64,000 nucleotides of DNA from a virus: the UHGV virus genome UHGV-1440165; one strand, written 5' to 3'. The notes below the pieces were generated by a model, which was given only the letters and a program-made list of their open reading frames with translations, had not been told where the DNA came from and made no database searches. Of the stretch, positions 10,128 to 62,548 are shown one piece after another. Within the stretch, counting starts at the first letter, position 1; the number at the start of each line of letters is the position of its first letter. Made by a program: the position numbers and the translations under genes.

Positions 10128-10211
10128 GGTGATTCTCCTTATTTCATTGGATGAAATGATAGGCGGCTCACCATGCTGAGTAAAGGGTTTCAATAAACTA
10201 TCGTATTCAGA

Positions 10212-11518: not shown

Positions 11519-12025
11519 TTATAGGGTAACAAGTGATACGGTAAAAACCATCGTCCCGTCAGTTGCCATTTTTCTTGAAACTGGTATGACGCGAGGCTGG
11601 CAGAATATCCATTCTTTCTCCATGGACGCCAAGTCCAGCATATCCATTTCTGATTCATCGCCTTTGTTCACAAATTTTTCTAGAGAACCATAGACATTAA
11701 GCCCCTCCGGGAGTCCGTTTCGATGTTTGTAACATATGCGGGCGACAGCTCTGGTTCCATACGATTTAGAAAATTGTTTGGCCACATGCTTCAGTTCACT
11801 GAAGCTAAGACAAGAATCCCATGTCTGAAACATGTCTCCTCGTTCAAACATCATCTCCAAACGCGCAACGTCCTCTTTAGGCAACCCGCGATAAAGTGTG
11901 GTCATCTGCGGTTCGCGTAATTCTCGCACCAGACCACGGATGGCAGGGGAAACAGTGCCAGGGCGCATGATGTGGGACTTATCATGGACGAGGTAAAATA
12001 AATCTTGAATTTGTTGATCGGTCAT
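11519..12025 (-). CDS. Hypothetical protein; possible ADP-ribosyltransferase-like
   Basis: 168 aa; ATG with GAAGGA RBS; candidate R / S-x-S / E-x-E triad (LYRG, DSCLSFS, EKE) is suggestive only. Confidence 0.35.
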   Translation of the reverse strand: MTDQQIQDLFYLVHDKSHIMRPGTVSPAIRGLVRELREPQMTTLYRGLPKEDVARLEMMFERGDMFQTWDSCLSFSELKHVAKQFSKSYGTRAVARICYKHRNGLPEGLNVYGSLEKFVNKGDESEMDMLDLASMEKEWIFCQPRVIPVSRKMATDGTMVFTVSLVTL

Positions 12026-12084
12026 GATGTATTTCCTTCATTTCAAATAGGCGGGGTAATCATACCCCACCCTAAGTTATAGAA

Positions 12085-12324: not shown

Positions 12325-12375
12325 GATATAATCTTACCTTTCAACCTGGTGAACCCATCGTTCGCCAGTTATTGA

Positions 12376-12405
12376 ATAATAGGACATTCTTTAGAGGAAG
12401 TAAAC
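12376..12405 (-). promoter_or_regulatory. Sigma70-type early promoter (-35 GTTTAC, 18-nt spacer, -10 TATTAT)
   Basis: Minus-strand GTTTAC-N18-TATTAT immediately after a terminator hairpin; resembles the T4 early-promoter -35 consensus. Confidence 0.5.
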
Positions 12406-12415
12406 CCCTAAAAGT

Positions 12416-12440
12416 AAAAATCCCCAACAAACGTTGGGGA
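12416..12440 (-). terminator. Intrinsic terminator (TCCCCAAC-loop-GTTGGGGA + T-run)
   Basis: 8-bp GC stem followed on the minus strand by TTTTTA; lies downstream of the 12458..12682 gene. Confidence 0.6.
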
Positions 12441-12457
12441 TTTAATAAAAGTTATGC

Positions 12458-12682
12458 CTATTTAATTTCTCGGCTTGAATTTTCCAGTTCTAATTTTCTT
12501 ATAGCGGAAATTCTACCTTCATCAGTTGCGGGAAACTCCCAAACAGCACGACGTCCGTTGTGAGTATCACAACTTGCCAGCCAGAAGAAATTAGAGGGAT
12601 CTTTAAACAAGACCAATTTAGGGTTAGCAATATTGTTCAGGCAAAATGGGGCGAGGTCAACAACGCGTGATACAGCAGACAT
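12458..12682 (-). CDS. Hypothetical small protein
   Basis: 74 aa ORF, ATG start. Confidence 0.4.
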   Translation of the reverse strand: MSAVSRVVDLAPFCLNNIANPKLVLFKDPSNFFWLASCDTHNGRRAVWEFPATDEGRISAIRKLELENSSREIK

Positions 12683-12731
12683 AATATATACCTTCTTTCA
12701 ACGGACGGGAACGCCCCGCCCTATGAATTCA

Positions 12732-12761
12732 ATAATACGTATTTGCCTTATAGAAGTAAAC
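12732..12761 (-). promoter_or_regulatory. Sigma70-type early promoter (second copy of the GTTTAC-N18-TATTAT cassette)
   Basis: Near-identical copy of the 12376..12405 promoter. Confidence 0.5.
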
Positions 12762-12771
12762 CCCTAAAAGT

Positions 12772-12796
12772 AAAAATCCCCAACGTTTGTTGGGGA
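12772..12796 (-). terminator. Intrinsic terminator (second copy, loop inverted)
   Basis: Same TCCCCAAC/GTTGGGGA stem as at 12416..12440 with the loop sequence reverse-complemented; T-run on the minus strand; downstream of the ACP-like gene. Confidence 0.6.
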
Positions 12797-12802
12797 CTTC
12801 TG

Positions 12803-27825: not shown

Positions 27826-29324
27826 TTCCCGAGCGCCACCTTCATGAATTCCACGGGGTGACGCTCTGTTAGATAGAATTTGTATCGCTCTTGAGAATGC
27901 CTCACAGCGTGGTTCTGGGATCCTTTGTACGATGCATTGTCGACTAAGTCCCAGATCCATGCAACATCCTTAGAGGAGTGCTGGCGCATCAGACGGCCTA
28001 ATGTCTGTATGACACGGATGTATGACTTGCTCGGGTGAGCCAGTACCAGGTGATGTAGCTTTTTGATAGACACGCCCTGCTGCATTGTGCCATACGATGC
28101 CAACAGCGTGATATCCTCGCCATCTTCCATCGCTTTCTGAATACGCCGACGATCCTCGATCTTCACTTCACCGTTGATGACGAACACGTTGGGTTTCACC
28201 GCGCTCAACATCTCGTACACCACCATCATGTGGGCATCAATACGCTCAAACATGACAGCCACGTTCCCATTGAGGTTCAGTGCCATCTTCGCAATCACTT
28301 CGTTTCGTGACTGATGGGTGATGAGGTATTCAATTTCCTTGCTGTATTCCCCGTCCAGTGTCATTGCGTCGGCGATGGTATGCCTCAGCTCAATCATCTT
28401 GACTTTGATGTCAGTGGCGTAGCCCAGATTAATGAGGTCGCGAGCCGTGATGATCTTGTGATAGGTGCCGAAGTGAGCGACAACCTGCAGCCCAGCAACC
28501 TTCGTGTTCGCAAGCGTACCTGTCACGCCCAGACGCTGGTCGGCATAGATGCAGTTGTTGAGGATGTAGGACAGCTTCTCCGACTTGGAGGTGTGAACTT
28601 CGTCCACCACGATATCACCGAACTGATGGAACCATTCCTTCGGCTGATCTTGTATGCCCTGCCAGGTGCTGATTACAATCGGCTTGGTGATGTTTTTAGT
28701 CGCGCCCTCAAAGATCAGCTGAGTGTTGACAACAGGCTTCCAATCAGTCCCGTGGGAGTATTCTTCGAAGTTGTCATACAGCTGCGTAACCAGGTGGATT
28801 GACGGCACCACGATAAGCGTCCTCAGATTGCTTTCCAGAGCTTCTCTGCGTTGCCTGTAGTACCGCGCCATGACATACAGAACAAAGGACTTCCCGGCAC
28901 TCGTAGCCAGCTCACAGACGCATCTGGTCTGACGCATCGCCTTGGCTATCGTGTCAAACTGGTAATCACGGGTGATCGCATCGATGTACTCATGATTCTC
29001 TGTCCGGACTTTGGCATGCAGGCTGTTGATGAATTCGTGTATCTCTTCATCAGGAATGTTCTGAACGTATTTCAGCGCCGGGTCCAGCTCAATAGTGTAG
29101 CCGTTCTGTTTGCAGAACTTGAACACCTCGAACAACAGGCCGATGTCGATAAGGCCGGAAGATTTGGTGAACAGACGGACAATCCCATCCCATTTAGAGA
29201 ACGGGTTCGGAGTGTAGTTTGGGTCTTCGAATTTGAAGTAATCGTTCAGCTCTTCCCTGATAGAAAGATCTGCGATGCATCGCATGCGGACTTCGTTAAC
29301 CTTAACAATCTGAACGTCTGCCAT
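27816..29324 (-). CDS. uvsW: UvsW-like SF2 DNA helicase
   Basis: N-terminus FKFEDPNYTPNPFSKWDGIVRLF resembles T4 UvsW; Walker A TSAGKS, DEVH box. ATG at 29324 (MADVQ...); track start 29417 is an extension. Confidence 0.8.
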   Translation of the reverse strand: MADVQIVKVNEVRMRCIADLSIREELNDYFKFEDPNYTPNPFSKWDGIVRLFTKSSGLIDIGLLFEVFKFCKQNGYTIELDPALKYVQNIPDEEIHEFINSLHAKVRTENHEYIDAITRDYQFDTIAKAMRQTRCVCELATSAGKSFVLYVMARYYRQRREALESNLRTLIVVPSIHLVTQLYDNFEEYSHGTDWKPVVNTQLIFEGATKNITKPIVISTWQGIQDQPKEWFHQFGDIVVDEVHTSKSEKLSYILNNCIYADQRLGVTGTLANTKVAGLQVVAHFGTYHKIITARDLINLGYATDIKVKMIELRHTIADAMTLDGEYSKEIEYLITHQSRNEVIAKMALNLNGNVAVMFERIDAHMMVVYEMLSAVKPNVFVINGEVKIEDRRRIQKAMEDGEDITLLASYGTMQQGVSIKKLHHLVLAHPSKSYIRVIQTLGRLMRQHSSKDVAWIWDLVDNASYKGSQNHAVRHSQERYKFYLTERHPVEFMKVALGNHD

Positions 29325-29349
29325 ACAAAATCTCCCAAGATATATGGGA

Positions 29350-29356
29350 TATTTAG
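29350..29356 (-). promoter_or_regulatory. Late-promoter-like motif (minus strand CTAAATAT)
   Basis: CACTAAATATCCC about 26 nt upstream of the UvsW ATG. Confidence 0.4.
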
Positions 29357-31139: not shown

Positions 31140-31790
31140 GTGACCCTGATGCGCGGGATCAGTAGATTGATGTTGGCATGTGCGATGCTCTTACTCACGA
31201 GCTGTCGCATCTTTGTCACGCCGATCATTTCTGTTTCCGAATTGTGGAACCCGGAAGTGCGCACCCTACCAGTCACCATATCGGCTAATGTCCAGACTTG
31301 CAACAAAGGAATCTTGGACGGCATCGTCCAAGAGTTCCAGAACTTCCAGAAGCTCGTGCCCCTGGGTTGCTTCGAGGAGAACACCAACACCCTCAAACCG
31401 TATTGGAAGACAACCATTCCACTTCTGCGCCGGGGCGATGAAGGGAAGATACCTTACCTGTCTGCCAGTATTTATTACTCCCAGAACAACAGCATCATCA
31501 TCACATTCAATCCATCATTCTATAAAAAACTGAAGCAGCACACTGTGGGGCGTGTTGATGTTGGATCAGAAGTGATTGTTACATTCAAGATCGTGAACGA
31601 CACAGGCAAGCCCGTCCGGATCGCAACTCAGGGCGTGTTCGTCAACAATGATGCCGTTGGGAATGAGATGAACATCTTTGAAGTGAAGCCAGAGGGAACG
31701 ATCTGGGTCAGACTGAGCAATGTGGGAGTGAACTCCCTACTGTTGGATGGCATCGAACCAGTGGGAGTTCTTCCGGCGCGGGAGCGCTGA
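31140..31790 (+). CDS. Putative lipoprotein on plus strand
   Basis: GTG at 31140 preceded by GGAGA (ATG at 31149 also in frame); basic n-region, hydrophobic LMLACAMLLL, lipobox LTSC; convergent with 31791..32519. Confidence 0.5.
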   Translation: MTLMRGISRLMLACAMLLLTSCRIFVTPIISVSELWNPEVRTLPVTISANVQTCNKGILDGIVQEFQNFQKLVPLGCFEENTNTLKPYWKTTIPLLRRGDEGKIPYLSASIYYSQNNSIIITFNPSFYKKLKQHTVGRVDVGSEVIVTFKIVNDTGKPVRIATQGVFVNNDAVGNEMNIFEVKPEGTIWVRLSNVGVNSLLLDGIEPVGVLPARER

Positions 31791-32519: not shown

Positions 32520-32547
32520 AAGAAAATACCCCCATGGATGATGGGGG

Positions 32548-32554
32548 TATTTAG
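32548..32554 (-). promoter_or_regulatory. Late-promoter-like motif (CCCTAAATACCCCC)
   Basis: About 29 nt upstream of the 32519 start; embedded in a CCCCCA...TGGGGG inverted repeat. Confidence 0.45.
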
Positions 32555-33608: not shown

Positions 33609-33905
33609 TCAAGCACCAAGCAATTGGGTGACATAACCCTTTTCACCACGTTTGTACGGCTTGCCCGCATTGATGCGACCCAGAATGTCAGTCGCGAATT
33701 TGGTAGCATCAGCGATAGCCTGCTTTTTGGTATAGCGCTCGTTCACGCCGTGCTCGTTCTTGGAGCCGTCGATGCCGAGGCAAGAAACATAAGTGTCACC
33801 GACATAAAGGGAATACACATATGAGTTTTGGCTGTTGGCCCATGCTTCAACGATAAAGCGAGAATCGATTACCAGAGCAGTTTTGGTGGTTGGCATATTG
33901 TTCAT
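33609..33905 (-). CDS. Hypothetical protein
   Basis: 98 aa ORF, ATG start; preceded by an early promoter embedded in a hairpin. Confidence 0.45.
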   Translation of the reverse strand: MNNMPTTKTALVIDSRFIVEAWANSQNSYVYSLYVGDTYVSCLGIDGSKNEHGVNERYTKKQAIADATKFATDILGRINAGKPYKRGEKGYVTQLLGA

Positions 33906-33954
33906 GGTGTAGTTCCTTCATTTCAGAGTCAGTGTTGTGCTGCTTATGGAATGA

Positions 33955-33986
33955 AGTATACGGGGTTTATTGAAGAAGTAAACCCC
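33955..33986 (-). promoter_or_regulatory. Early promoter (GTTTAC-N17-TATACT) overlapping a terminator-type hairpin
   Basis: Hairpin GGGGTTTA-loop-TAAACCCC (about 33962..33986); the -35 GTTTAC is part of the stem; -10 TATACT at about 33955..33960 on the minus strand. Confidence 0.5.
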
Positions 33987-34007
33987 GTTTATTGAATTAT
34001 TTTAAGA

Positions 34008-34244
34008 TTATTTGAATCGGTCAGGAAGGGTGTCGTGCAGTTCAGCTGACATGACTAAGAACTTGCCGTCTTTGGTCGGAAAGCAATAGTCTTTCTTCAC
34101 GATCTTCAGGTGCTCTGCGGTGGCCCGAACACACTCATCGGTGATGTCGGTCTTATTACCAACCCACATGGACTTGACCGTGTCTAGAGTGCCCTGGTAA
34201 ATGGTTCCACCCAATGGGCTTGCGCCGATAGTTTTGATTCTCAT
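34008..34244 (-). CDS. Hypothetical protein
   Basis: 78 aa ORF. Confidence 0.4.
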   Translation of the reverse strand: MRIKTIGASPLGGTIYQGTLDTVKSMWVGNKTDITDECVRATAEHLKIVKKDYCFPTKDGKFLVMSAELHDTLPDRFK

Positions 34245-34990: not shown

Positions 34991-35302
34991 TTAGTCTTTA
35001 GCAGGATCTTCGCAGTCTGGATGATAGAAGCTACCCAGCTTGCTGTGGATAACGTTCAGATGGTTGGTGATAGCTTCAATGATATCGTCCTGGGAGGACT
35101 GGATATCAATGATGGCACCGATCAGACCCGGCATAGGCTGTTGTGACAATTTGTCTGGATTCGCTGTCGGGAAATCACCGTCCAGTTGAACGCGGATACC
35201 CTTGATGTCGGCGAGGACATCGTACAGCCGCTCTTTCTGGGTACGAGCGTTTTTCAGGATTTGGGATACAGACTGCTCTGTTGATACGAGGTTACTTGAC
35301 AT
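34991..35302 (-). CDS. Hypothetical protein
   Basis: 103 aa; ATG at 35302 with AGGAG RBS that lies inside an 11-bp-stem hairpin. Confidence 0.45.
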   Translation of the reverse strand: MSSNLVSTEQSVSQILKNARTQKERLYDVLADIKGIRVQLDGDFPTANPDKLSQQPMPGLIGAIIDIQSSQDDIIEAITNHLNVIHSKLGSFYHPDCEDPAKD

Positions 35303-35310
35303 GATTTATA

Positions 35311-35348
35311 CTCCTGTTGTATGGTTGACTGTATAAGCATACAACAGG
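35311..35348 (-). other. Strong hairpin (CCTGTTGTATG...CATACAACAGG) that includes the RBS of the downstream gene
   Basis: 11-bp perfect inverted repeat with a 14-nt loop; one arm contains the AGGAG of the 35302 gene. Confidence 0.5.
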
Positions 35349-35402: not shown

Positions 35403-36875
35403 TCAGACCAAGACGTATTTTATCAGGCCACAGTTCCAAATCCTGACCAGACCTGCTTCAGATGCCAGTTGACTCTCCGTTTTACCTTCGACGTCATACC
35501 CCATGCGAGCAAATGAACCTTTTCTGAAACCGAATTTGTGCTCACGCATAAATGTCCCTGGTTTGTGGTATTTGTAGTCTGGCTTCTGCACTTCCTCTTC
35601 TACGAATCCGTGGGATAGGTAAATGTTGGACAATCTGCTTACAACACACCTATCCCCAAAGGAATAGATTGTGGTGTCGATAAATTTTCTTCTGAAGTGT
35701 GAAAGAAGTTTACTGAATGCCCCGTGACAGTCATGGGAAGCAAATCTGACCAATTCCAGGCCATCTTTCCTTTTAGTGAACAGCATCACGGCTTGTATGA
35801 CCCCACTCTTGTCAATTAACGACAAATGGTAGGTGGAAGAAACGGAACCTTGTATGTGGTGTTTGTCTAAAAACTCCCTCAAGCCATTTATATTTCCCCA
35901 AACGACTTTGTGTTGGCGAGCATATGACGCAGGCGTTTTAATGCCAAGTTTAGCTTTCAGAAGAGATTCGACCACTTCCTGTTTCTCAACCCATTCATCT
36001 TCCCAGATGTGGATCAACTGGATACCCTGAGTTTCACATATTTCAGTCTTTTCCAGGTGATAATGTTTCTCTTTAAAAACTTCTGAATGCCAGTACAGGC
36101 CATTAAATTCAATCGCCAATTTATGTTCATGGCAATAGATATCTAGTTGTTTACCGGATAATATGCTGTAATCAGAAACAGTGTTCACAACTCCCATTGA
36201 GGTGAGAAACTCAGATATTTCCTTTTCATAAGAAGATTTCTTGTTCCTGATAGAACCATTGCTGAACAACGCACGTTTTAGTATGGTCGAGTTTTTCATA
36301 GGGTTGTCAACACCGTAACGTTCTTGTAACGTTGCCAACGCCTTCTCCCTCACACCAGGTAATTGTAGTGTGGAGCAGCTTCCGTATTTGGATATATTCG
36401 AAGTCTCTATGGCTTTACGACCAATCCCACCTTTACACATAGAAACCTGATAACATTCTTCAGAACAATATGTTCTGTAATCTTTATCATTGATGTAAAA
36501 GTTGGTTTCCTTGGAACACACCGGGCATATTTTCACGGTCCTATTGTGTAGCCAAGCTGTGACTTTACAAGCCAAATCTTGTAGGGTGTTGTGGGCATTG
36601 GCGAACACTAAAAGGTCTACATTGATGTGCTTCATAAGCAGTTCAGATTTGCATTTTTGGATATCCAATTTGTTGTTCTTGGTAAACATATTTTTATAGA
36701 AAAATTGGCGATATGATTCCTCATCAGACAATGTCTTCACTGCTTCAAGGAAACCTTCCGGGAGGTTCTTTAGGGTGTTCGATGCGAAGGTCTTGCAAGC
36801 ATCTGAACAAAATTTCTTGTCTTTCCTGGCAGATTTAAATTGTTCATGGCAGATACCACAGATTACCTGATACAT
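35403..36875 (-). CDS. Putative freestanding homing endonuclease (zinc-finger + PD-(D/E)XK-like nuclease domain)
   Basis: 490 aa; N-terminal Cys clusters (CGICHEQF...C..C; CPVCSKE); DIYCHEHKLAIEFNGLYWH fits a D...E-x-K nuclease motif; inserted just downstream of the major capsid gene. Confidence 0.4.
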   Translation of the reverse strand: MYQVICGICHEQFKSARKDKKFCSDACKTFASNTLKNLPEGFLEAVKTLSDEESYRQFFYKNMFTKNNKLDIQKCKSELLMKHINVDLLVFANAHNTLQDLACKVTAWLHNRTVKICPVCSKETNFYINDKDYRTYCSEECYQVSMCKGGIGRKAIETSNISKYGSCSTLQLPGVREKALATLQERYGVDNPMKNSTILKRALFSNGSIRNKKSSYEKEISEFLTSMGVVNTVSDYSILSGKQLDIYCHEHKLAIEFNGLYWHSEVFKEKHYHLEKTEICETQGIQLIHIWEDEWVEKQEVVESLLKAKLGIKTPASYARQHKVVWGNINGLREFLDKHHIQGSVSSTYHLSLIDKSGVIQAVMLFTKRKDGLELVRFASHDCHGAFSKLLSHFRRKFIDTTIYSFGDRCVVSRLSNIYLSHGFVEEEVQKPDYKYHKPGTFMREHKFGFRKGSFARMGYDVEGKTESQLASEAGLVRIWNCGLIKYVLV

Positions 36876-36930
36876 AATTATTCTCCTCTATATGGTATCT
36901 AGTATAACCCATTTGATAATATGAACAAAT

Positions 36931-36956
36931 AAAAACCCCGCCGAAGCGGGGTTTTA
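36931..36956. terminator. Strong intrinsic terminator (bidirectional architecture) after the major capsid gene
   Basis: AAAAA-CCCCGC-CGAA-GCGGGG-TTTT. Confidence 0.7.
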
Positions 36957-49181: not shown

Positions 49182-49832
49182 TTAGTCTCCGAAGTCAATC
49201 TTCAGTTTGTCTAGCGCGAGGTCTTGTTCTAACACATCGGCCTGCGCATTATCAGTCTGAAGAGACGAATCTTTGTACACACCCGGATCCCCTTCTTCGT
49301 CCAGGATAGACAGACGCTTATCAATGTCGTCGATCTCTGGTACGCCAGTGTCGAAGTTCTCGTTGCCGTACTGGAACAACGTGCATGGCAGGGAATAGGT
49401 GTGCCACTTGCCGAACTGCATGAAGTCTTCGTCATTGTTCGGGTTGTTCACTTTGAAGATCTTGTTCGCCAGCGGCAGGTAAATCAAATCACCTTCCTGT
49501 GGCTGTTGTTCGAGGCCGACACCGTTGCCAATGACCTCTGCGAATCGACGACGAGAAATAGAGAACGTGACCTCGTCCTGCAGCTGGATACCCCCGAACT
49601 TCTCCCACATCTGGGTGTTGAAGCCCTGGTAGTCCTGCATGTACGCTTCGATGTCGAACGCCTGGTCGAATCTGTGGTTGGCATCGTTGGTGATAGGAAA
49701 TTTTTCAACGATGGAACGTGGTATATACTTGATGTCTATCCCACGCAACTCAATCATTTCCTGTACCAGGTCATCAATCAGCTTTTGGGTGCCGTTGTGT
49801 CCGGTGTAGTTGAAATATTTTGAAGTGGCCAT
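49182..49832 (-). CDS. Putative neck protein (gp14-like by position)
   Basis: 216 aa, ATG start; preceded by a late-promoter-like motif. Confidence 0.35.
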   Translation of the reverse strand: MATSKYFNYTGHNGTQKLIDDLVQEMIELRGIDIKYIPRSIVEKFPITNDANHRFDQAFDIEAYMQDYQGFNTQMWEKFGGIQLQDEVTFSISRRRFAEVIGNGVGLEQQPQEGDLIYLPLANKIFKVNNPNNDEDFMQFGKWHTYSLPCTLFQYGNENFDTGVPEIDDIDKRLSILDEEGDPGVYKDSSLQTDNAQADVLEQDLALDKLKIDFGD

Positions 49833-49856
49833 ATCAATACCCTCAATTTTGAAGGT

Positions 49857-49863
49857 ATTTAGT
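49857..49863 (-). promoter_or_regulatory. Late-promoter-like motif (GACTAAATACCTT)
   Basis: About 25 nt upstream of the 49832 start. Confidence 0.45.
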
Positions 49864-57058: not shown

Positions 57059-59497
57059 TTACCAAGACCAAAGATTACCATTGGTATCACAGTTTCCAGT
57101 AGCAACAACCTTAGTCAGACCAGAACCACCCCTAGTCTGGAAGATGTTACCAGTAAGGTTAACAAGTGAGGTGTTTCCATAAGATATATTAATATCTTCA
57201 GAATACCCATAAACTATATTAGCTGACACAGTTGCAATTGCACGGCTATCCGAGTTTGTATTATCCAACCTGATACCATACTGACCAGGTGATACTGATG
57301 CATGTACAATCTGGTTGTTACTGATATTAACGTTACCAACGCTGCGAATATTACCAACAGTAAGAGCGGTATATGCCCCAGGAGTTGGTGCAGTAAACAG
57401 CATTTGATTGCCATTAAAGGAAAACCACCGCAAGCCTTGGGTTGTTGTGGTATTGGTAGTTGTTGTAACTTGGATGTTTTCAAACTGGTTATTATCAATC
57501 TTAACAGTTGCACAGGATTTAATGTGCAGAATTGCCTGCTTATTAAATGAAGTAAACTTGTTATTGACAAAGCTAACTGAAGTTAGTACATCTTGGTCTT
57601 GTTCATAATAAATACCACCAATTGATGTATACTCTGATGGGTTATTAAGAACAGCCGTGTTACCATCAAAGATAACACCCTTGCAAAGACCAATAGCAAC
57701 TAAGCAACCATTTAGTGCATCCTTGGTGTTATTACCTACAGCTACAGAATCAGTACAACTCTCAAAGTCAATGCACACATCTTTGCAGCCATCAACAGCG
57801 TTGCCAGTGATAGTAACCCTATCACCCATAGCACCCCAAATGCCACCTACGGCATTACGTACAGTGTTACCAGAGATTGTTACGTCATTACACTTACGAG
57901 GCTTAGTCATGTCATAGCCCTCATCTGCTTTAAGTGCATCTCCACCAACGAACTGGATACCTTCCTTGTGACCATCAATGTAATTACCGCTAATACGCGC
58001 CATCTTTGCATATGCAGTATAGATTGCAGCTGGTCTGAATGGCGCCCCAAGCACACCATCACCACTACCATAAGACTGACAGTTTACAACTTCAATGTTA
58101 GTACAGTAATCTGCATCCGTTGTAATAAGTGGATATGCACTACCAGCACCAAATCCAATATCATGTGCAATCATGGGGTTTGGACACTTACGAGACTTAG
58201 TAGAGAATAGCGCCATTATCACAGAGACACAGTTACGCATTGAAACATTGTTACAGGAGACTAAGTTAACAGCTGGTGCAAGTGATACACTAGATGCGGC
58301 ATCAAACCTAAGACCTTTAAAAACTATGTTAGATTTCTCAATACCTGTAAATACAGCTTGCCCCTCTTTATCAAGCGTCACCTTGATAATGGCATTATTA
58401 CCACTATGTATCTGGTTAGATTCGAGCATAAGTACACCAGAGTCAACAAGATAAGTACCAGCTGGGTAATCTATCTTGCGTGCACCAGATAATATTGCAG
58501 ATTGAAGGGCTGCGGTATCATTTGTAACACCATCACCGATAGCCCCAAAGTCACGAATGCTGATCGTCTCCAGTAGTTTGTCATGAACTGTACGTGAGAC
58601 GGCACTTGCTAACGGCTGTTTCATCCCTATCAGGGCATCACCTAATACAACGTTAGTAGTGTCCACAAGGTCGTCGCGTAGGTTAGGGTCAGTTTGCGGA
58701 ATCCAATCCGCAGTACCGACCGGGTTAGCCCCTGCGGCTATGACGTGCGGCAACGTCCCGGCCCATGAGTACCACGTCTTACTCACAGGGTCATACACTA
58801 CCTTATTACGGTCGTTAACACCGAGTGTACCTCCAGTATAGAATGTAAACCCAGCGTCAGTGTAGCCATTTTCAATCGCCCAATTAAGTTTTAATTTAAC
58901 CAAGTCAGTATCAATATCATTAAGTTCTTCCTGTACAGTTTGACCGGAAGACGTACCAATCAGACTTGCGCCTCCATCGGAAGAGAGCGCCAGGTAATTC
59001 TGCTTAATGGACATTTCTGCCACGACCCAAACTCCAGCCGCAGGCGAACCTGTGAGGAAACTCACAACTCCTGTTGTGCTGTTGTAGCTGTAGTTGACGC
59101 CAGGAACCTGGAACCGCCCATCGACGTACAGGGACTGCACCCCATAAGATGTGAAGTCTGGGGTGAATGAGGTCTCGTTGCCAACGGCCTGGAATTTGTA
59201 GATGCGGATCCCGTTTTCATAATCTTCTGGGGACAGGATCTTGTCAAACAGACAGTACACTACATCATCAGCCTCCAGCGCTCGACCGAGGTTGACTGTG
59301 TTGCCATCGATTTCGTAATTGTCTACGGGAACCTGAACTCCACCATTGATGGTGATGAAGCCTGTAACGGGATAGAACGGGAGGGAGATAAACGTCTCTC
59401 CACCCGTTGCTGTGTAAGTGTATGGAATCTGGTGCGGGGCTGTTACAACCGCTCCAAAGATGCTCTCGACGTTTCTGGTCATTTGAAGATACCCCAT
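57059..59497 (-). CDS. Tailspike protein with pectate-lyase-type right-handed beta-helix (putative depolymerase)
   Basis: 812 aa; IRDFGAIGDGVTNDTAALQSAI (about 58493..58558) is the hallmark N-terminal motif of pectate-lyase-superfamily beta-helices; N/T/G-rich repeats downstream. Confidence 0.7.
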   Translation of the reverse strand: MGYLQMTRNVESIFGAVVTAPHQIPYTYTATGGETFISLPFYPVTGFITINGGVQVPVDNYEIDGNTVNLGRALEADDVVYCLFDKILSPEDYENGIRIYKFQAVGNETSFTPDFTSYGVQSLYVDGRFQVPGVNYSYNSTTGVVSFLTGSPAAGVWVVAEMSIKQNYLALSSDGGASLIGTSSGQTVQEELNDIDTDLVKLKLNWAIENGYTDAGFTFYTGGTLGVNDRNKVVYDPVSKTWYSWAGTLPHVIAAGANPVGTADWIPQTDPNLRDDLVDTTNVVLGDALIGMKQPLASAVSRTVHDKLLETISIRDFGAIGDGVTNDTAALQSAILSGARKIDYPAGTYLVDSGVLMLESNQIHSGNNAIIKVTLDKEGQAVFTGIEKSNIVFKGLRFDAASSVSLAPAVNLVSCNNVSMRNCVSVIMALFSTKSRKCPNPMIAHDIGFGAGSAYPLITTDADYCTNIEVVNCQSYGSGDGVLGAPFRPAAIYTAYAKMARISGNYIDGHKEGIQFVGGDALKADEGYDMTKPRKCNDVTISGNTVRNAVGGIWGAMGDRVTITGNAVDGCKDVCIDFESCTDSVAVGNNTKDALNGCLVAIGLCKGVIFDGNTAVLNNPSEYTSIGGIYYEQDQDVLTSVSFVNNKFTSFNKQAILHIKSCATVKIDNNQFENIQVTTTTNTTTTQGLRWFSFNGNQMLFTAPTPGAYTALTVGNIRSVGNVNISNNQIVHASVSPGQYGIRLDNTNSDSRAIATVSANIVYGYSEDINISYGNTSLVNLTGNIFQTRGGSGLTKVVATGNCDTNGNLWSW

Positions 59498-59518
59498 AGA
59501 GGATTTGCCAATATGGGG

Positions 59519-59525
59519 TATTTAG
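59519..59525 (-). promoter_or_regulatory. Late-promoter-like motif (GACTAAATACCCC)
   Basis: About 22 nt upstream of the 59497 start. Confidence 0.45.
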
Positions 59526-62504: not shown

Positions 62505-62541
62505 TTCAAATACCCCTAAATGTGTTCATGTCATCTAGGGG

Positions 62542-62548
62542 TATTTAG
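62542..62548 (-). promoter_or_regulatory. Late-promoter-like motif (AACTAAATACCCC)
   Basis: About 38 nt upstream of the 62504 start; overlaps an ACCCCTA...TAGGGGT inverted repeat. Confidence 0.45.

Follow-up and report, generated by a model that had tools for sequence, protein, structure and literature searches.

We favour, with confidence a little above even, the reading that the intergenic element at positions 33,955 to 33,986 of the window (the whole 64,000-nt stretch of viral DNA analysed, UHGV-1440165) is a promoter/stem-loop cassette of the PeSL type located at a module junction. The feature is real and conserved, and almost certainly regulatory. The observations behind this reading are the anatomy, stability and conservation of the element, the existence of a promoter family to which it belongs, the module junction at which it sits and the alternative placements of the hairpin in homologous cassettes.

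Promoter and hairpin between two minus-strand genes

Judged by sequence identity, the source of the window is a ViI-like phage (Ackermannviridae). The 4 kb around the element are 97% identical to Salmonella phage pSal-SNUABM-02 (Ackermannviridae, Agtrevirus) and 80-90% identical to many ViI-like phages of Salmonella, Escherichia, Klebsiella, Dickeya and Enterobacter. A simple gene call assigned 62 of the 74 ORFs of the window to the minus strand, and because the nearby genes all lie on it, the minus strand is the one to read here. The element lies within a 102-nt intergenic gap with minus-strand genes on both sides, which reads TAA-TCTTAAAATAA-TTCAATAAACGGGGTTTACTTC-TTCAATAAACCCCGTATACTTC-ATTCCATAAGCAGCACAACACTGACTCTGAAATGAAGGAACTACACC-ATG on that strand. 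At this place in the annotated relative, small hypothetical genes are arranged in series behind the major capsid gene and a homing-endonuclease-like gene. When eight neighbouring proteins were searched against Pfam, DUF7446 and a YpsA-like SLOG domain alone were found, with no regulator and no DNA-binding family. A related-locus search with the downstream 98-aa protein returned just three near-identical loci. The features of the gap and its flanking genes are as follows, with their basis in brackets.

34008-34244, minus strand: upstream gene, 78 aa, DUF7446 (ORF list; Pfam PF24233, E = 1e-27)
34008..34010, minus strand: TAA stop codon of the upstream DUF7446 gene (ORF list, sequence)
33989..34007, minus strand: AT-rich stretch 5' of the -35 element, UP-element-like, with the first TTCAATAA copy at 33996..33989 (sequence, A+T content)
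33953..33996, minus strand: imperfect 22-nt tandem repeat, 18/22 identical, TTCAATAAACGGGGTTTACTTC then TTCAATAAACCCCGTATACTTC, covering the entire promoter (sequence)
33979..33988, minus strand: 5' arm of the hairpin, ACGGGGTTTA (sequence, inverted repeat I3, folds)
33977..33983, minus strand: -35 element, either GTTTAC at 33983..33978 (T4-early-like) or TTTACT at 33982..33977 (TTGACA-aligned) (sequence, scans)
33970..33978, minus strand: hairpin loop, CTTCTTCAA, 9 nt, also within the promoter spacer (RNA and DNA folds)
33960..33969, minus strand: 3' arm of the hairpin, TAAACCCCGT, occupying the promoter spacer (sequence, RNA fold, inverted-repeat count)
33955..33960, minus strand: -10 element TATACT (sequence, sigma-70 consensus scan)
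33906..33949, minus strand: predicted transcription start at ~33947-33949, placed from the -10 element, and conserved C/A-rich leader (93-100% column agreement)
33919..33913, minus strand: ribosome-binding site GAAGGAA in the leader (sequence)
33609..33905, minus strand: downstream gene, 98 aa, without a Pfam family, an exchangeable module behind the cassette (ORF list, Pfam)

The initial annotation had reported GTTTAC 17 nt from TATACT, and this is exact on the minus strand (33983..33978 and 33960..33955). It had also placed GTTTAC in one arm of the hairpin; GTTTA does lie inside the 5' arm, but the C is the first base of the loop. Measured from TTTACT the spacer to TATACT is 16 nt, and this TTTACT-16-TATACT site is included in the sigma-70 consensus scan. 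The generic sigma-70 scan gave 10 sites against 10.0 expected, so that it is uninformative alone and a family-specific pattern is required. GTTTAC-N14-20-TATANT occurs once where 0.05 occurrences are expected, and GGGTTTAC occurs 8 times against 1.06 expected. Upstream of the -35 element, A+T reaches 91% over 34010..33989 with the stop codon TAA included. The leader string TGAAATGAAGGAA is found again at 12033-12045. Hypermodified thymidine, which the literature describes in the DNA of these phages, is a caveat to the T-rich promoter reading.

The hairpin described in the initial annotation is real and lies on the minus strand (33960-33988), but it extends two pairs further than was listed there. 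It consists of 10 perfect pairs, half of them G-C, with a GGGG/CCCC core, and the final base of its 3' arm is the first T of the -10 element (33960). The RNA fold has an energy of -14.0 kcal/mol against -5.1 +/- 1.9 for shuffled sequences (z = -4.8), a value equalled by none of 200 shuffles, while the DNA fold has -9.9 kcal/mol (z = -5.3). Perfect inverted repeats of at least 10 bp with a loop of 3-12 nt occur at only four loci in the 64-kb window (7 overlapping hits in the raw count; shuffled sequences gave 0.68 on average and never more than 3). Besides this one there are three regulatory hairpins, namely the clear terminators at 12418-12443 and 36932-36955 and a hairpin at 32524-32552 that surrounds a late-promoter-like motif; a literature search for the late-promoter string returned nothing but unrelated primer sequences.

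Several assignments of the hairpin were rejected. The sole match in Rfam 15, mir-205, is a chance match, its 19.7 bits lying far under the gathering score of 55. Sequestration of the ribosome-binding site, as at late-promoter hairpins, was dismissed with that site ~40 nt downstream of the stem. In phage N4 the hairpin itself is the promoter for the virion RNA polymerase, and in the single-strand promoters of conjugative plasmids folding restores the -35 as well as the -10 box. Neither type applies here, since the -10 element is outside the stem and the boxes suit sigma-70 on duplex DNA. The earlier proposal that a DNA cruciform occludes the promoter is likewise without support here.

Like a canonical Rho-independent terminator, the element has a stable hairpin with a G+C core directly 3' of a gene. 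Canonical intrinsic terminators have a G+C-rich stem, a loop of 3-8 nt and a U-rich tract, whereas the loop here is 9 nt, the sense strand carries no U tract, and the hairpin 33960-33988 was not listed in the terminator scan of the window. The sense strand 3' of the stem reads ATACTTCATTCC, and its T-tail score of 1.0-1.8 falls short of the 3.1-4.9 reached by clear terminators in this phage. What survives of the label "terminator-type" is thus a stable hairpin, but not a classical intrinsic terminator. As the sense-strand U tract is missing, the hairpin would be an attenuator at best; the weak T tail predicts attenuation at most, and intrinsic termination would be weak unaided. No published transcript maps or RNA ends for Ackermannviridae were found in searchable papers.

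The promoter's own transcript is predicted to start at ~33947-33949, downstream of the hairpin (11-13 nt from the stem end by geometry), so that only read-through RNA from upstream can fold the hairpin. Folding in the transcript, as first suggested, is possible in this read-through RNA but not in the promoter's own product.

The promoter family and the cassette in related phages

The whole pSal-SNUABM-02 genome (161 kb) was assembled and searched for the promoter family. TTTACW-N15-17-TAnnnT gave 16 matches, ten of which fall in the 7.6% of the genome that is intergenic by the ORF calling of this analysis (p = 3e-8); two further matches fall within gaps of the GenBank annotation. In the window there are four TTTACW-type matches, every one co-oriented with the genes. 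By sequence, the element thus belongs to a TTTACW-N16/17-TAnnnT promoter family that is T4-early-like and concentrated in intergenic DNA.

Eleven intergenic co-oriented promoters of pSal-SNUABM-02 were described. They have in common an AT-rich upstream region, TTCAATAA or its complement nearby or inside, a -35 element TTTACT(TC) and a -10 element TATACT or TATTAT. There are 28 occurrences of TTCAATAA/TTATTGAA in this genome, 12 of them within 45 nt of the eleven promoters, where ~0.2 would be expected. A G+C-rich hairpin lies upstream of, abuts or overlaps the -35 element in 7/11 promoters. At two of these sites, 138284 and 152631, a good terminator leads directly into the -35 element by its 3' arm and T tail (GCCCC-TTTACT and GGGGGT-TTTACT), the T tail itself being the -35 element.

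Members of the family also recur within the window. GGGGTTTACTTC is present in three copies, all on the gene strand and intergenic. Two of them, at 12397-12408 and 12753-12764, stand directly behind a canonical terminator CCCCAAC...GTTGGGGATTTTT, with TATTAT 17 nt further on, and the 47-nt terminator-promoter repeats so formed (D8, 12397-12443 and 12753-12799) flank a 74-aa ORF at 12458-12682. These elements and one further promoter are:

12376..12443, minus strand: sister element, canonical terminator hairpin 12418-12443 and T run, GGGGTTTACTTC (-35 at 12404..12399), 17-nt spacer, TATTAT at 12381..12376 (repeat D8)
12732..12799, minus strand: second sister element of the same build, terminator, GGGGTTTACTTC (-35 at 12760..12755), 17-nt spacer, TATTAT at 12737..12732 (repeat D8)
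10156..10198, minus strand: further family promoter, TTTATTGAA (inverted TTCAATAAA), CCCTTTACT (-35 at 10184..10179), 17-nt spacer, TATCAT at 10161..10156 (sequence)

The cassette, taken as 33996-33908, was compared in 17 relatives from Agtrevirus, Limestonevirus, Kuttervirus and Taipeivirus. Its identity to the window is 93-100% across these four genera, while the upstream gene is only ~65-73% identical in distant relatives and the downstream region is often non-homologous. In Klebsiella phages the 98-aa protein is only 68% identical and the cassette about 93%. At least 80% of the cassette is held by 270 phage records, at 2-3 places per record.

The stem is identical in 15/15 IMG/VR copies and in nearly all GenBank copies. 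Covariation of the stem was sought in the 17 GenBank relatives, the 15 IMG/VR contigs and a metagenome scan, and none was found; the stem is invariant wherever this cassette (cassette A below) occurs, and RNAalifold or a covariance model is consequently uninformative. Loop and leader vary no more than the stem does, so conservation gives the pairing no special status. The changes that do occur in cassette A leave the stem unbroken: the stem is longer in phages ZQ1 (12 bp) and LHE287 (13 bp), SP-9-14 has one extra bulged C, LHE287 has TTTACT changed to TTTAAT at a loop position, and PhaxI (L016) carries the 22-nt unit three times.

Among the relatives, four unrelated gene families stand directly downstream of the same cassette (98-aa proteins, proteins of 105-154 aa with MTTVKIS/MKTPKIS-like N-termini, 93-aa proteins and one 83-aa protein), and there is one deletion (LHE287). 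In BLAST comparisons, homology begins at the stop codon of the upstream gene for Yersinia phage CAU_YEP3 and breaks off at the ATG for most Kuttervirus phages. One further gene separates the cassette from the 98-aa gene in the closest relative. It is inserted directly at the ATG, and the junction is placed there because this relative's 98-aa gene is preceded by a different ribosome-binding site of its own. In Serratia phage KNP4 (Miltonvirus) the 98-aa gene occurs without the cassette. As judged from these alignments, the cassette sits at a module junction.

Three paralogous cassettes are present in pSal-SNUABM-02, at 101892 (A), 138284 (B) and 57805 (C). TATACT and the sequence following it in cassette A recur in both B and C. 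Cassette B has in common with A the upstream AAAATAATTCAATAAA, TTTACTTCTTCAATA, the leader beginning TATACTTCATTCCATAAGCAG and the ribosome-binding site. Its hairpin AAAGGGGC-ATTT-GCCCCTTT (GGGGC-loop-GCCCC) lies entirely upstream of the -35 element, which is the T tail. The same hairpin reads GGGGCAAACGCCCC in Ag3 and GGGGCTTTAAGCCCC in CRW-SP2, where the loop and closing pairs vary and the pairing is retained. Cassette C has no G+C hairpin, just an AT inverted repeat TTATTGAA...TTCAATAA around the -35 element. On the divergent metagenome contig L044, the same promoter precedes a homologue of the same 98-aa gene with its arms decayed (AACGGTTTAC...AATAAAGTCCT); there is no overlapping hairpin, and a canonical terminator CCCGCTTCGGCGGGGTTTTTATTT stands ~25 nt upstream. 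Homologous promoters thus keep a hairpin at differing positions. Among the observations made here, this is the strongest sign that the hairpin itself has a function.

The strongest rival explanation, which we consider unlikely though still the one to be weighed most seriously, accepts the promoter and denies the hairpin any function: the inverted repeat would be a by-product of the promoter motifs and the 22-nt duplication, kept uniform through recombination or through selection on promoter and leader. Part of the complementarity does follow from promoter motifs, as TTTA of the -35 element pairs with TAAA of the recurrent spacer motif TTCAATAAA, and only ~5-6 nt (CCCCG) are specific to the hairpin. 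GGGG precedes the -35 element in two other promoters without a partner arm, the 18/22 tandem repeat has a third unit in PhaxI, loop and leader are as invariant as the stem with no covariation, the U tract is missing, and cassette C lacks a G+C hairpin. Against this explanation, perfect 10-bp stems are rare, with four loci in 64 kb of which the other three are regulatory, and the rare changes lengthen the stem (ZQ1, LHE287) and none break it. Moreover, homologous cassettes retain a hairpin elsewhere, and L044, where the arms have decayed, has a separate terminator. Between the inferred steps of a hairpin mechanism and a hitch-hiking inverted repeat, the present data do not discriminate.

Known systems and further alternatives

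PeSLs, or promoter-early stem-loops, were described in the T4-like phages RB49/phi1, PST/T4 and nt-1/KVP40 (PMC2839356; PMC4122927). Each combines a sigma-70-like promoter, an AT-rich region ahead of it and a stem-loop, usually of the GGGG...CCCC kind, that lies between the -35/-10 boxes, overlaps them or stands just outside; in RB49/phi1 it is found between or over the boxes (PMC2839356). The promoter consensus of the PST/T4 pair is TTTACW-N17-TAYWAT (PMC4122927). Reporter assays established both promoter and terminator activity, and modular shuffling via PeSLs was described (PMC2839356; PMC4122927). PeSL211/210, whose positional subclass was not found, cut downstream lacZ about like rrnB T1 (PMC2839356).

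At the sequence level, all defining features of PeSLs are present in the element. It has sigma-70-like boxes at ~17-nt spacing, agrees with the PST/T4 consensus, is intergenic and is co-oriented with the downstream gene. Its upstream stretch is AT-rich (the 91% A+T over 34010..33989), and its GGGG/CCCC stem places the 5' arm over the -35 element and the 3' arm against the -10 element. It is repeated in the genome, with three cassettes and 11 family promoters in pSal-SNUABM-02, and it lies among small variable genes of unknown function that are replaced, inserted or deleted between relatives. There are also differences. PeSLs have been described in T4-like phages (Straboviridae) only, whereas the element is found in Ackermannviridae; no published PeSL-type cassettes were found for this family, and the papers found to use the term deal with other phages. 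Only three close paralogues are present per genome here, compared with dozens in PeSL phages. Finally, the cassette is nearly base-for-base identical across four genera and is known here from its sequence.

In bacterial promoter-coupled terminators, the DNA of the stem-loop also serves as the -35 element (Fletcher et al. 2026, bioRxiv 10.64898/2026.08.19.745784). They are defined by a mapped RNA 3' end at most 35 bp upstream of a same-strand start, and their motif has a T tract between the stem and the -10 element, with ends ~10 bp apart (bioRxiv 10.64898/2026.08.19.745784). Promoter-bound polymerase raises the efficiency of a weak overlapping terminator, and inactivation of the coupled promoter increased read-through by 58% (bioRxiv 10.64898/2026.08.19.745784). 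The element resembles these terminators in that its stem-loop DNA supplies the -35 hexamer and in that the stem end and the predicted next start are a few bases apart between tandem genes. It differs from them in having no T tract, its 3' arm filling the spacer and abutting the -10 element. Cassette B and the promoter at 152631 in pSal-SNUABM-02 are nearer to this design, but there the T tract is the -35 element and not the spacer.

T4 early promoters, as Liebig and Rueger are said to have reported in 1989, have a -35 element GTTTAC instead of TTGACA, a ~17-nt spacer, a TATAAT-like -10 element and an A/T-rich upstream region. The element resembles them in its GTTTAC, 17-nt spacing, TATACT and AT-rich upstream stretch; as a class, T4 early promoters are not defined by a stem-loop. 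ViI-like phages are without the T4 early and middle regulators Alt, Mod, MotA and AsiA (PMC3184105).

Taken as a PeSL-type cassette, the element would work as follows. The host sigma-70 polymerase would recognise the promoter in duplex DNA through the AT-rich stretch, TTTACT/GTTTAC, the 16/17-nt spacer and TATACT, and would drive the next small gene, presumably early in infection, via the conserved unstructured leader. In read-through RNA, the hairpin would most likely serve in attenuation or as a protective 3' end for the upstream message, and a polymerase at the overlapping promoter may act as a roadblock that aids attenuation. By analogy with the two published results, those on PeSLs and on the bacterial terminators, attenuation is plausible. 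Expression of the downstream module would in that case come mostly from the module's own promoter, leaving it insulated from the genes around it. Since the cassette is nearly invariant, it may double as a homologous linker for module exchange between phages. The coupling of termination to initiation put forward in the initial annotation is a reasonable idea with experimental precedent in other systems, the PeSLs of T4-like phages and the bacterial promoter-coupled terminators: both signals share DNA between co-oriented genes, while the coupling itself stays conjectural.

An improbable alternative is that ACGGGGTTTA-N9-TAAACCCCGT is an operator, on which a dimeric phage or host protein bound across the -35 element and spacer would repress the promoter, for example later in infection. 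The 10-bp half-sites, with centres 19 bp apart, span the core promoter, half-sites of such spacing are typical for repressors, and an invariant sequence is expected of a protein-binding site. According to Fletcher et al. (2026, bioRxiv 10.64898/2026.08.19.745784), the palindromes of terminators can at the same time be sites for transcription factors. However, pSal-SNUABM-02 has a single copy of the full palindrome in its 161 kb, other GGGGTTTAC promoters there carrying one half-site, and cassette B retains the promoter without the palindrome. The neighbouring proteins belong to no DNA-binding family (DUF7446, YpsA-like SLOG or no match), and the downstream gene, being exchangeable, is ruled out as an autoregulator.

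Less probable again is a terminator for antisense (plus-strand) transcription, or a bidirectional one, that overlaps the promoter by chance. The plus-strand tail TTTATTGAATTATTTT reaches a T-tail score of 3.4, inside the 3.1-4.9 span of this phage's clear terminators, but this T-rich tail is the mere complement of the AT-rich stretch 5' of the -35 element. No credible plus-strand gene ends nearby, the nearest (31149-31790) being 2.2 kb off.

The weakest alternative, which we regard as very improbable, is that the hairpin acts as DNA, in a cruciform or single-stranded fold, and is a recombination recognition site that moves gene cassettes: the cassette is a module junction and the DNA fold is significant, but cruciforms form poorly from a 10-bp arm with a 9-nt loop, ordinary homologous recombination over ~90 identical bases accounts for the exchanges, and the junction with the closest relative is at the ATG and not at the hairpin. 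Also counted in its favour, the GGGG...CCCC stem-loop of PeSLs was speculated to be the target of a recombination protein, and PeSL mini-circles were detected (Arbiol et al. 2010, PMC2839356).

Significance for the Ackermannviridae

The early promoters of ViI-like phages were considered not identifiable by informatics in the CBA120 genome paper (PMC3184105). The AG3 and LIMEstone papers gave a few consensus matches and described no such cassettes, and a 2024 review of the Ackermannviridae is silent on promoters and terminators. The present analysis supplies a testable early-promoter consensus, that is, an AT-rich stretch with TTCAATAA, then TTTACTTC, a 16/17-nt spacer and TATWMT. It also indicates that these genomes join terminators to promoters in several different ways, and it points to a conserved linker where small genes swap between genera. 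Because Ackermannviridae are widely used, and engineered, for the biocontrol of Salmonella, E. coli O157, Klebsiella and Dickeya, a portable natural expression cassette and exchange site would be of practical use.

As a long shot, the ~90-nt cassette could be an active site of gene-cassette exchange in Ackermannviridae, at which the hairpin in single-stranded DNA would be bound by a phage recombination or nuclease protein, like integron attC. If true, this would account for the base-for-base identity across four genera despite differing downstream genes. On the preferred reading as a PeSL-type cassette, a known design would be extended to another phage family and no new mechanism is involved. 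The main value would lie in an early-promoter consensus and a map of exchange sites for a family whose transcription signals are largely undescribed.

Cassette A and the 98-aa gene in related phages

The pairing of cassette A, the promoter and hairpin element of about 90 nt, with the downstream 98-aa gene was compared among relatives. A divergent copy of its promoter was found in a metagenome contig, where it likewise precedes a homologue of the 98-aa gene:

JACCDR011179837.1 (L044), about 1920-2070, match-bearing strand (reverse of the locus): divergent promoter copy

This copy lacks the hairpin that overlaps the promoter and is preceded, at a distance of about 25 nt, by a canonical terminator. 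In the Serratia phage KNP4 (Miltonvirus; L048, 270-410), no cassette separates the preceding gene from the 98-aa gene homologue, and the two are directly adjacent. Because KNP4 carries the homologue without the cassette, the cassette is not bound to the 98-aa gene family-wide.

The cassette itself also varies. The 22-nt unit TTCAATAAACGGGGTTTACTTC occurs in three copies in Escherichia phage PhaxI (L016, 415-480), giving two alternative 5' arms. In Escherichia phage LHE287 (L014, 400-520), the -35 element reads TTTAAT in place of TTTACT, the stem is lengthened to 13 bp and the downstream gene is lost.

Elements accompanying early-type promoters

Early-type promoters are the place where the motif TTCAATAA/TTATTGAA clusters. 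Across the whole genome of the closely related Salmonella phage pSal-SNUABM-02 (L020-L023), 12 of 28 copies lie within 45 nt of the 11 promoters, being located 5' of the -35 element, within the spacer or 3' of the -10 element, in both orientations. It might represent either a feature akin to an UP element or the binding site of a factor. Its copies in the window, and those of a conserved leader, are as follows:

33967-33974, 33989-33996, 10189-10198, 12369-12376 and 12728-12735: TTCAATAA/TTATTGAA motif
33906-33949 and 12022-12045: C/A-rich conserved leader (repeat D2)

The leader, which terminates in TGAAATGAAGGAA-N8-ATG, is common to cassette A and its paralogue in pSal-SNUABM-02, cassette B, and its last 24 nt are also found at the gene whose start lies at 12025. 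The leader equals the promoter in its degree of conservation and may enhance translation.

On the plus strand (33960-33998), the cassette A hairpin is followed by TTTATTGAATTATTTT with a T-tail score of 3.4, and therefore it could stop antisense transcription.

Terminators joined to promoters or promoter-like elements, and a further hairpin, elsewhere in the window

Two further kinds of junction and one hairpin were located in the window:

12397-12443 and 12753-12799: two terminator-plus-promoter repeats of 47 nt each (repeat D8)
36897-36955: terminator 3' of the major capsid gene (AAAACCCCGCTTCGGCGGGGTTTTT) plus a promoter-like element
35313-35348: hairpin with 14-nt arms, 93% complementary (repeat I10)

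The 47-nt repeats, 89% identical and spaced 356 nt apart, enclose a 74-aa ORF (12458-12682); in phage RB49, mini-circles of the promoter-early stem-loop cassette (PeSL) arise from the same arrangement. The capsid-gene terminator continues directly into the promoter-like TTTGTT-17-TATACT, which would serve a 490-aa endonuclease-like gene (35403-36875), and is a further case in which the T tract and the -35 element have bases in common. The I10 hairpin lies directly 5' of the ribosome-binding site of gene 34991-35302.

Hairpins at late-promoter-like motifs

All 10 copies of the late-promoter-like motif CTAAATA(cccc) in the window are on the gene strand and none is on the opposite strand; nine of them have a start codon shortly downstream. 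At five sites, the motif makes up the 5' arm of a strong hairpin:

62508-62546, about 59490-59525, about 49830-49862, 32524-32552 and about 29320-29356, minus strand: late-motif hairpins

The 3' arm (GGGGTATTT, GGGAG) is positioned 3-12 nt 5' of the ATG and appears to be the ribosome-binding site. In read-through RNA, the folded hairpin would hide this site or cause termination, while late transcripts, starting within the hairpin, would be translatable. This arrangement resembles the control of the T4 genes e, soc and I-TevI.
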